A stretch of 64,000 nt of DNA from Escherichia coli (GTDB taxonomy: Bacteria > Pseudomonadota > Gammaproteobacteria > Enterobacterales > Enterobacteriaceae): NCBI RefSeq assembly GCF_046105845.1, contig NZ_CP151004.1; one strand, 5' to 3'. Shown here piece after piece: positions 18,001 through 21,000 of the stretch. Every line of letters begins with the position of its first letter. The stretch's first letter is position 1. Made by a program: the position numbers.

Positions 18001-21000
18001 AGAGATGCAACATCACCAGCGTGGCAACAATTGCGGCGATATCCACCGGCACCATCACCGATGCGTATTCGCGAAAGCCGAGGCCAAAGAAATCTGCGGA
18101 AACGATATTCACCAGGTTGGAGACAATAAGCGGCAGGCTGGCGGTATCGGAAATGAATCCGGCCGCCATCACGAACGCCAGCGTAGTGCCTTTACTGAAC
18201 CCTAAAGCCAGCAGCATGGCGATGACAATTGGCGTTAAAATCAGCGCCGCACCATCATTGGCAAACAGAGCTGCAACGGCAGCACCGAGCAGGACAATCC
18301 AGGTGAACAGCAAGCGACCGCGTCCATTGCCCCAGCGTGAGACGTGCAGCGCTGCCCATTCAAAAAAGCCGGACTCATCCAGCAGCAGGCTGATGATAAT
18401 AACGGCAATAAACGCAGCCGTCGCGTTCCAGACGATATTCCACACCACCGGAATATCACCCGGATGTACCACGCCCGTAACTAACGCCAGTACTGCGCCG
18501 AGTGTTGCACTCCAGCCGATGCCTAAACCTTTCGGCTGCCAGATAACCAATACGATGGTCAGGACAAAGATAGCGCCTGCCAGTAACATAATGCCTCCCG
18601 GAAAAAACACATGTGCAAATCCATATGTGTTTAGATAAATTTTTTAACTACAAATGTTCTTACTGTCTTCGGAACAATTTTGTCGAGCCAGGTTGCGGAC
18701 AATCACCTGAACCTTTTCCTGTTCACATCGCCAGGCCTCATCAATAATTTTCGCCGCCCATGCTGGAATATGCGGTGATAAGCGGTAATGAACCCACTTA
18801 CCTTGCTTGCGATCCAGCAATAGCCCGCTTTCACGAAGAAGCGCCAGGTGGCGGGATATCTTGGGCTGCGACTGATCGAGGGCAGTACAGAGATCGCAGA
18901 CACATAACTCTCCCAGCTCGCTTAGCAGTAAAACGATGCCCAGACGGGTCTCATCAGCAAGAATTTTGAACAGTTGGATGGGTAACAGAAATGACATATT
19001 GCGCTCCTGATTGTTGCCGGTAGTGTCTCTCTTCGAAGCGGATAAGTCAAAAACATATATGACTTAACGAATATGTAAGTGTGGAGAAAGGTATAGATGT
19101 GAATTAAGCGTTGGGTATTCATTTGAAAGGAGGTCTGAATCAGGACGTAAAAAAACCGACTTTGCGTCGGTTTTTTACTTTCCAGCCCTGAGTTGGTGGC
19201 TCTGGCTGGAGTGAGAGAGCTCTTATCTAACAGTTCAATACTATTAGCCAGTGGCTAACATTGCAAGAATTAGCGATTTCTTCAGCTGGAGAAGGGACAG
19301 TTTGCTATACATGTTGGTGAAAGAGGATTTATATACTTTCATCGGGTCGCTGCCGTACCAAGCCTTGTCCGAATCCGGACGTAAAAAAACCGACTTCGCG
19401 TCGGTTTTTTACTTTCCAGCCCTGAGTTGGTGGCTCTGGTTGGAGTGAGAATGCCATCATCTAACGCATCAATGCTAATACCATACTGAAACTATTGCAA
19501 GGACGTGCTGGTTTTATAACCTGCATGTACTGTATGATTATCCAGTTAGCTCTGAGGCATTTTCACTCTGGTAATGCGCATAAACGCTTTCAAAGTCCTG
19601 GTCAGAAGTACGGGTGGTGCCGTTAACTGATGCTCTGGCCGGAGTGAGAGAGTTCTTATCTAACAATGAGACATGCGCCGTGACAGGCAGTGGATGAGTA
19701 AGCGGATGCATTCTCACTCCATCGCATGGAGAAAACGGGTGATTGATAAAGCAATCATCGTTCTTGGGGCGTTAATTGCGCTGCTGGAACTGATCCGCTT
19801 TCTGCTTCAGCTTCTGAACTGATAGCGGAAACGTAACTAAGGGCAAAGAGCACACCACTCTTTGCCCTTTAACATTTAACGCATGGTCACGAACTCTTCT
19901 GCCGCCGTCGGGTGAATGGCGACGGTATTGTCGAAGTCTTTTTTGGTCGCCCCCATCTTCAGCGCCACCGCGAAGCCCTGCAACATTTCATCCATACCAA
20001 AACCAATGCCGTGAATTCCGACAATCTTCTCTTCCGGTCCAACGCATACCAGTTTCATGCGGCACGGCTGGCGGTGAGTGGTGACGGCGGTATACATCGC
20101 GGTGAAAGAGGATTTATACACTTTCACCTGATCGTCGCCGTACTGCTCGCGCGCCTGCGGTTCCGTTAAACCAACAGTACCAATCGGCGGATGGCTGAAG
20201 ACCACGGTCGGAATGTTGCTGTAATCCAGATGCTCATCAGGCTTGTTATTAAACAGGCGTTCAGAGAGACGGCGACCCGCTGCAACTGCCACCGGTGTCA
20301 GTTCCACTGCACCCGTGTTATCGCCCACCGCGTAAATACCTTCAACGTTGGTGTTTTGATATTTATCGACGACGATATAGCCTTTTTCGTTGGTTTTTAC
20401 ACCAGCGGCTTCCAGGTTGATGTTGTCATTGGCAGGCTCGCGACCAATCGCCCAAATCAGGCAATCTACCGTTTCACTGCGACCATCTTCCAGCTCCAGC
20501 GTCAGGCTGCCGTCGGCATTTTTCACCACCGCTTTCGGGATGGCGTTGGTGTGCAGCTGCGGGCCTTCGGCGTTCATCACTTCGACCAGCGTTTCAGAGA
20601 TCATCGGGTCGAAGCTGCGCAGCGGCGCATGTTTACGCACAAACAGATGCGTTTTCGCGCCGAGGCCGTTAATCACGCCCGCCAGCTCAACGGCGATGTA
20701 ACCCGCGCCAACAACCGCCACGCGCTCTGGCAAAGCAGGAAGGGCGAAGAAGCCATCAGAATCAATACCGTATTCCACGCCCGGAATATCCGGGTGGCTC
20801 GGACGACCGCCGGTGGCGATCAGAATATGATCGGCCGTGATGGTTTCGCCGTTTACCTCCAGCGTTTTGGCATCAACGAAGCGGGCAAAGCCTTTGATTA
20901 CATCAACGTTATTTTTACCGAGCACGTTTTCATAGGAAGTATGAATACGGTCGATATAGGCGGTACGGCTGGCGATCAACGTTTCCCAGTTGAATTTATT

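Follow-up and report, generated by a model that had tools for sequence, protein, structure and literature searches.

The best-described counterpart of the locus analyzed here is the dinQ/agrAB system of Escherichia coli K-12 MG1655 (b4613, b4712, and b4713; Weel-Sneve 2013, Kristiansen 2016), for which experimental work has described SOS/LexA control, antisense repression by AgrB, and a toxin of 27 amino acids (PMC3567139, PMC5066626). DinQ is an inner-membrane peptide, and dinQ is controlled by LexA through two operators (PMC3567139). The full-length RNA is locked by a duplex between elements 1 and 2 of a four-element switch and by a 3:4 hairpin over the ribosome binding site; once 43 nt have been removed, element 2 is able to pair with element 3 and the site opens, and binding of AgrB to the element 2 region closes it again and makes cleavage by RNase III possible (PMC5066626). 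The K-12 AgrA RNA, in vitro, neither closes the ribosome binding site nor blocks translation nor permits RNase III cleavage (PMC5066626). The complementarity to dinQ in K-12 is 30/31 for agrB and 25/31 for agrA, the level of full-length dinQ mRNA is lowered by both RNAs, and loss of agrB results in UV sensitivity (PMC3567139).

The nearest relatives of this system are the dql (dinQ-like) genes found in chromosomes and plasmids of Enterobacteriaceae (Kristiansen 2016; T1TAdb), which have a related peptide and a related 5'-UTR architecture. Among systems that work by a different mechanism, the closest analogue is tisB/istR-1, which is the other SOS-induced type I locus of E. coli. Like dinQ, tisB is a LexA-controlled toxin gene with an inert full-length mRNA that is activated by 5' processing (+42 in tisB, +44 in dinQ), and istR-1, like AgrB, is a divergently encoded antisense RNA that acts in trans and triggers cleavage by RNase III. 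However, the two systems are unrelated in sequence and in peptide; tisB relies on a ribosome standby site instead of the four-element switch of dinQ, and it lacks a duplicated antisense gene.

We analyzed a stretch of 64,000 nt of E. coli contig NZ_CP151004.1 (the window), in which the arsR–gor intergenic region at 19100-19830 almost certainly represents a chromosomal dinQ/agrAB type I toxin–antitoxin locus, complete and apparently functional. The flanking genes, arsR (18644-18997) and gor (19876-21228), both lie on the minus strand. This location distinguishes true dinQ from dql, and the arrangement is shared with K-12 and with strain KE55. The annotation of K-12 MG1655 runs gor(+), dinQ(-), agrA(+), agrB(+), arsR(+); the window, read in the opposite orientation, shares this position, order, and relative strands, and its alignment with the K-12 arsR–gor region extends from one end to the other. 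The first-pass annotation had read the region as the SOS-induced DinQ toxin under AgrB antisense control, and this reading is borne out by the alignment, in which the repeat copies fall at the positions of agrA and agrB, as well as by the Rfam model RF02891, the NCBIfam model of DinQ, and the matching experimental literature. The intergenic region is 94% identical to that of K-12: 50 of 880 columns of the alignment differ, 37 of them in the arsR–agrB and agrB–agrA spacers. Compared with KE55, the window shows no difference over the stretch that runs from agrB to the end of the dinQ terminator. Both agr genes are present, and the DinQ peptide, the LexA operator, the AgrB target site, and switch elements 2 to 4 are identical to those of K-12. 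By virtue of this near-identity, LexA binding, expression, processing at +44, and toxicity would be expected in the window strain as well.

Every defining feature of the DinQ/AgrB type I family that can be tested on sequence was found in the window, and nothing in the sequence argued against the dinQ/agrAB identity. A megablast search matched the region 19000-19900 in 5,422 of the 5,426 complete E. coli genomes, and the annotation beneath the matches includes dinQ and gorA. The window gene is a true dinQ and not a dql; in a plasmid dql example (L011), an AgrB-family match of 70.6 bits lies beside a gene annotated as dinQ, and the agr-like sequence abuts the open reading frame (ORF) without the separate LexA-box promoter region that is present in the window. 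The dinQ–agrA–agrB locus is already known and the one described here is ordinary and represents no new member or variant. The window confirms a known SOS-regulated toxin–antitoxin module as intact in one more strain, which has little wider import.

A repeat search detected two direct 114-nt copies (19133-19246 and 19367-19480) with 88% identity and a spacing of 234 nt, and the repeat extends in register to 19133-19268 and 19367-19502 (111 of 136 positions identical). Outside it, the ~98 nt left in each 234-nt period have identity at the random level (27/98) and are unrelated. What had been described as two copies of a ~235-bp unit is therefore correct in the number of copies and close to the period, but the repeated unit itself is only ~136 nt. 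Each copy carries the same hairpin, AAAAAACCGAC-N5-GTCGGTTTTTT (19150-19176 and 19384-19410), which had been noticed earlier as an identical bidirectional hairpin closing each copy; with an A-run on one side and a T-run on the other, it is terminator-like in both directions. Within the locus there is also a three-member family of 34-nt repeats (19199-19232, 19433-19466, and 19632-19665), the last of which is 94% identical to the first and corresponds to the third partial copy of the first-pass annotation. Around this third copy we detected no homology beyond the 34 nt, local alignments of its flanks being no better than those of shuffled sequences. A third full-length, degenerate agr unit in the dinQ 5' UTR was considered and rejected, because Rfam gave only 22.7 bits (E = 0.66) at 19578-19663 and the flanks were at shuffle level; only the 34-nt stretch is common to the three.

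Both large copies are small RNA genes of the AgrB family and cover the full RF02891 model, with scores far above its gathering score of 40. The agrB antisense RNA gene, the antitoxin (19147..19230, minus strand; 108.1 bits, model positions 1-84), adjoins arsR at the K-12 agrB position, and its paralogue agrA (19381..19464, minus strand; 99.7 bits) occupies the K-12 agrA position. In agrB, the 5' 34 nt complement the dinQ 5' UTR and are followed by an internal stem and by the terminator hairpin at 19150-19176, the equivalent hairpin of agrA being at 19384-19410, and both stems of the AgrB-family RNA appear in the predicted folds. As read from the sequence, the agrB promoter (19231..19266, minus strand) has a -35 box TTGCAA (19261-19266) and a -10 box TAGTAT (19238-19243) separated by a 17-nt spacer. 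The agrA promoter (19465..19500, minus strand) is in register with it and has the same -35 box (19495-19500), the same spacer length, and a -10 box TAGCAT (19472-19477). Consensus-like -10 and -35 boxes have been reported for both agr genes (PMC3567139). The 5' ends of the RNAs, taken from the start of the Rfam model, are 19230 (agrB) and 19464 (agrA), each 7 nt past the -10 box. A simple consensus scan for promoters and terminators called neither the agr promoters nor the agr hairpins. The promoters match only 8/12 positions, below the threshold of the scan, and the T-run of the terminators is absorbed into the A/T-extended stem; hence, these misses are a limit of the tool and no sign that the agr promoters or terminators are absent.

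The first-pass annotation had held that neither the small RNA ends nor the identity of each copy could be determined from sequence. However, the 5' ends can be read by means of synteny, complementarity, and the published K-12 mapping, and synteny and complementarity agree in identifying agrB as the arsR-proximal copy and agrA as the dinQ-proximal one. The near-perfect complementarity between AgrB and dinQ, expected over ~31-34 nt, is present here between RNA genes that lie on opposite strands without overlap and whose 5' ends are 315 bp apart. On the DNA strand, agrB and the dinQ target are identical at 32/34 positions and one of the two differences is a G·U, whereas agrA differs at 9/34. The predicted duplex energies of the 34-mers were -61 kcal/mol for agrB versus -44 kcal/mol for agrA, and those of the 40-nt 5' ends against 19625-19670 were -58 kcal/mol for AgrB versus -41 kcal/mol for AgrA. 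Compared with K-12, the window AgrB has a G in place of an A opposite a U (19220), which gives one more non-Watson-Crick position (G·U), and AgrA has five changes, its core being ATGCCATC where that of K-12 is TAGCCATC. Comparative support for the pairing comes from 16 E. coli loci, across which the core of the target and one agr copy covary. Judging from this complementarity, the working antitoxin of the window strain is the arsR-proximal copy (19147-19230), AgrB, and AgrA (19381-19464), which pairs poorly, is probably without translational repression.

It is very unlikely that the roles are swapped or shared in the window strain, with AgrA or both copies acting as the antitoxin. Such an arrangement would be in line with the lowering of full-length dinQ mRNA by both RNAs in K-12 and with the better match of the dinQ-proximal copy to its own target in 6 of 14 sampled two-copy loci. 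In the window, however, it is the arsR-proximal copy that matches (2/34 against 9/34 differences, and -61 against -44 kcal/mol), and the arrangement is the same as in K-12, in which AgrA is inactive on site closure and translation in vitro.

The dinQ promoter overlaps the LexA operator TACTGTATGATTATCCAGTT (19528..19547), which covers the -10 box (TATGAT, 19533-19538) and the transcription start (G 19545). This operator, to which binding is predicted, is identical to that of K-12 at 20/20 positions and matches the consensus TACTGTATATATATACAGTA at 15/20. The pattern CTG-N10-CAG proved too loose, with 29 matches in the window, so the number of matches to the 20-nt consensus was used instead; at 15/20 or better, 19528-19547 is the only site in the 64 kb, and 0.05 are expected per composition-preserving shuffle. 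The LexA box that had been placed at 19530-19545 is indeed there (CTGTATGATTATCCAG), but its right half is CCAG (CTGT-N8-CCAG) and not ACAG. In K-12, the dinQ operator has a heterology index of 4.83, and a second operator with an index of 13.82 lies near the first and overlaps the promoter (PMC3567139). A candidate for this weak second operator is TGCTGGTTTTATAACCTGCA (CTG-N10-CTG; 12/20 to the consensus) over the -35 region, probably at 19506..19525.

The dinQ primary transcript would run on the plus strand from +1 to the terminator (19545..19872, ~328 nt), consistent with the published transcript of ~330 nt (PMC3567139), with the +44 processed 5' end at 19588. The position of +1 (G 19545) was transferred from the published K-12 nucleotide numbering, with which 16 named bases (including G1, U16, G88, G94, G106, A119, C120, U167, U178, A182, and G187) agree except for C28, a U here. 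The four elements of the switch, with their exclusive 1:2, 2:3, and 3:4 pairings, are all at the published positions on the plus strand. Element 1 (U16-C28, UUUUCACUCUGGU, 19560..19572) pairs with element 2 (GCCGGAGUGAGAG, 19638-19650) in the full-length mRNA, and element 2 lies inside the AgrB binding site of the 5' UTR (19632..19665, plus strand), which is the third repeat copy (the published site, G88-A119, corresponds to 19632-19663). Element 3 (UUCUCACUCCAU, 19711-19722) and element 4 (AUGGAG, 19726-19731), both identical to those of K-12, form a hairpin that masks the ribosome binding site, the Shine-Dalgarno GGAG (19728-19731) being part of element 4. The only change in element 1 with respect to K-12 is C28 to U at 19572, which turns a C-G pair into U·G. 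The two changes from K-12 found inside functional RNA, at 19220 (AgrB) and 19572 (element 1), both retain pairing as G·U. Downstream, a hairpin terminator (19839..19869) formed by a perfect 12-nt inverted repeat, which the scan called on the minus strand, separates the convergent dinQ (plus strand) and gor (minus strand) genes, and it carries a compensatory difference from K-12: 19845 and 19863 change together from T-A to A-T, and the pair is kept.

The folds predicted with ViennaRNA are in agreement with the closed and open states of the switch. In the fold from +1, the 1:2 duplex is formed, the Shine-Dalgarno is paired, and the ribosome binding site is closed, and in the fold from +44 the GGAG is mostly unpaired and the site is open. 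The predicted +44 fold did not reproduce the 2:3 duplex exactly as published; hence, that step rests on the published SHAPE data. Put together, and following what has been shown in K-12, LexA would sit on the operator over the dinQ promoter until DNA damage allows transcription, and the full-length mRNA produced would be untranslatable, with elements 1 and 2 paired and the ribosome binding site held in the 3:4 hairpin. Removal of the first 43 nt would free element 2 for element 3, the site would open, and the 27-amino-acid inner-membrane DinQ could be made. AgrB, presumably transcribed constitutively from the opposite strand ~300 bp upstream, would pair through its 5' end with the 34 nt that include element 2, closing the ribosome binding site again and exposing the duplex to RNase III.

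The dinQ coding sequence (19739..19822, plus strand) starts with GTG and has 27 codons plus the stop. Its translation, VIDKAIIVLGALIALLELIRFLLQLLN, is identical to K-12 DinQ, from which the gene differs by one synonymous position (19765), and corresponds to a single-transmembrane peptide that, by comparison with K-12, would be toxic. The earlier identification of this hydrophobic ORF as DinQ thus holds: the ORF is intact, and the peptide scores 54 bits against a cutoff of 30 with the NCBIfam equivalog NF041472 (toxin_DinQ). A Pfam search of the peptide returned no family. Homologous genomes annotate the gene as dinQ, and WP_001295215.1 is the DinQ accession in every chromosomal locus that we fetched from the E. 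coli genome collection. A 49-codon ORF beginning with ATG (19673-19822) is also open in the window and was the original dinQ prediction (PMC3567139). It is nevertheless highly improbable that this 49-amino-acid protein is the product, since the K-12 product is reported as 27 amino acids translated from the GTG on the +44 transcript (PMC3567139), the Shine-Dalgarno GGAG lies 7 nt upstream of that GTG, and RefSeq annotates a coding sequence of 84 nt. As for the region being a set of ordinary intergenic repeats and terminators with a chance ORF and no toxin–antitoxin function, for which one could invoke the agr promoters and hairpins missed by simple scans and the lack of a Pfam family, this is hardly credible and can be regarded as practically refuted by the experiments in K-12 and the near-identity of the window, given the wide margins over the Rfam and NCBIfam thresholds, the almost base-for-base match to an experimentally characterized locus, and the conservation of the ORF (WP_001295215.1) in all the chromosomal loci fetched.

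The pattern of alleles within the species, which could carry more weight than the window locus itself, may be the only new element here, and it concerns E. coli as a whole rather than the window. The 8-nt core of the dinQ target is polymorphic, with at least five alleles, as seen by comparing 16 other E. coli chromosomal loci and the 5,426 complete genomes, and each of the loci compared has one agr copy with a matching or nearly matching core. Alleles were counted with 48-nt queries in which every 28-mer seed spans the core. The type shared by the window and K-12, GAGTTCTT, was found in 1,681 genomes, and the commonest alternative dinQ allele, ATGCCATT, in 1,918; the cores TAGTCGTC, ATACCATT, and ATGCCCAC followed with 418, 308, and 248 genomes, respectively, and a fused junction form was found in 813. 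Of the 5,422 genomes that gave a match of any kind, 5,386 are accounted for by the five cores and the fused form together. In all 14 two-copy loci sampled, only one of the two agr copies tracks the target. This better-pairing copy is arsR-proximal in 8 and dinQ-proximal in 6, and its position varies between lineages. The core of the window agrA (ATGCCATC) is one base away from ATGCCATT.

We tentatively suggest, as a possibility that falls somewhat short of an even chance, that the two agr genes are a pair of alternative antisense specificities and not one antitoxin plus a dead paralogue. The three 34-nt stretches are direct repeats of DNA, so gene conversion could switch which RNA controls dinQ and, by itself, would keep the transcripts of opposite strands complementary. 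The allele pattern may be driven by selection, by gene conversion, or by both. A literature search found no description of allele variation or gene conversion at dinQ/agr, and T1TAdb remarks that AgrA may lie between DinQ and AgrB. If the antitoxin role does alternate from one agr position to the other, the labels given in K-12 would fail across the species, and AgrB as the antitoxin with AgrA inactive would be a statement about the K-12 lineage only. In that case, dinQ/agrAB would illustrate how antisense specificity evolves in nature through gene conversion.

Structural variants of the locus were also observed. Single-agr loci are found in A39 (668 bp) and BH100N (632 bp), the latter in a setting that has lost arsR and arsB. 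In the 433-bp fused form, an agr repeat is joined to the dinQ copy, with loss of both the agr and the dinQ promoters, of the LexA box, and of the first ~87 nt of the 5' UTR; a simple promoter scan found no sigma-70-like site in it. PGAP still annotates dinQ in this form. About 15% of E. coli genomes, Nissle 1917 among them, have the fused form and would carry a PGAP-annotated dinQ that lacks a recognizable promoter. These variants look like recombination products of the repeats, and the same direct repeats would be the substrate for both the single-agr and the fused deletion forms.

In the spacer between agrB and agrA there is a 53-nt relic derived from the gor coding sequence (19306..19358, minus strand) that is identical at 44/53 positions to gor 20091-20143, in the same orientation (E = 4e-12). 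This relic is no functional part of the toxin–antitoxin system, and it is less decayed in the window than in K-12, where its counterpart retains 42/55 identical positions with a 4-nt gap.

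Within the antisense stretch, an 8-nt core lies at 19650-19657 in the dinQ target, at 19217-19224 in agrB and at 19451-19458 in agrA, and its sequence is not fixed. Across E. coli, the core of the dinQ target exists as at least five alleles (counted in 5,426 genomes). When the agr copies were compared with the target at sampled loci from other E. coli genomes (L001-L010 and L012-L017), the target was always tracked by one agr copy, which among the two-copy loci was the arsR-proximal one in 8 of 14 and the dinQ-proximal one in the other 6. In the window, the agrA core (ATGCCATC) differs by a single base from ATGCCATT, which is the most frequent of the alternative target alleles (1,918 genomes).

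We also found a perfect 14-nt inverted repeat formed by the agrA copy (19441-19454, TGGAGTGAGAATGC) and the dinQ region (19708-19721, GCATTCTCACTCCA), the latter arm spanning element 3 of the 5'-UTR switch. Because of this repeat between the agrA copy and the element 3 region, the activating 2:3 helix could, judging from the sequence, reach 13 to 14 bp in dinQ targets with an ATGCC core, compared with 10 bp, and the ease with which the switch opens may differ among target alleles.

The copy number of the locus varies in E. coli as well (L003 1199-1843, L004 1138-1807 and L005 1138-1608), with single-agr forms in A39/O111:H8 and BH100N. A fused form, present in 813 genomes including Nissle 1917, has the agr unit joined to the 34-nt dinQ copy, so that neither promoter (agr or dinQ) is present and the LexA box is missing too; its dinQ ORF is intact and still annotated. 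A similar layout was found on the 45-kb plasmid pS34_2 (NZ_JCAUKO010000003.1, L011 1465-1712), where an AgrB-family match (70.6 bits) directly abuts the 5' side of a dinQ-like gene annotated as dinQ.

Strain KE55, the closest full-length match, shows 14 differences from the window, every one of them in the arsR–agrB spacer (18998-19146). At most of these sites the window follows the BH100N/KKo003 type instead, a pattern suggestive of a recombination mosaic whose breakpoint would lie just upstream of the agrB terminator. Of the 50 differences that separate the region from K-12, 26 fall in the agrB–agrA spacer, which contains a 53-nt relic of the gor coding sequence (19306-19358) in the same orientation as gor. 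It is identical to gor 20091-20143 at 44 of 53 positions (E = 4e-12), and a small minus-strand ORF (19244-19342) encodes KVYKSSFT, also found in Gor. The same relic is present in K-12, although more decayed and with a 4-nt deletion. These remains hint at the involvement of gor sequence in the agr duplication.

Antisense to the dinQ 5' UTR there is a 59-codon ORF (19538-19717, minus strand), probably a spurious call; in some genomes (e.g., EcPF15, M1, and STEC383) the counterpart has been annotated by PGAP as a hypothetical protein of 57 aa, and in others it is left unannotated. Elsewhere in the window, a match to the shuA/chuA 5'-UTR thermoregulator (8874-8905, plus strand; Rfam RF02597, 60.1 bits versus a gathering score of 58) indicates that the chu/shu haem-uptake locus is also included and that the source strain is, by sequence, chuA-positive. 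Finally, the dinQ/gor terminator hairpin (19839-19869) differs from that of K-12 in both arms at once, at 19845 and 19863, with A-T in place of T-A; the two substitutions compensate each other, so that the stem is preserved.
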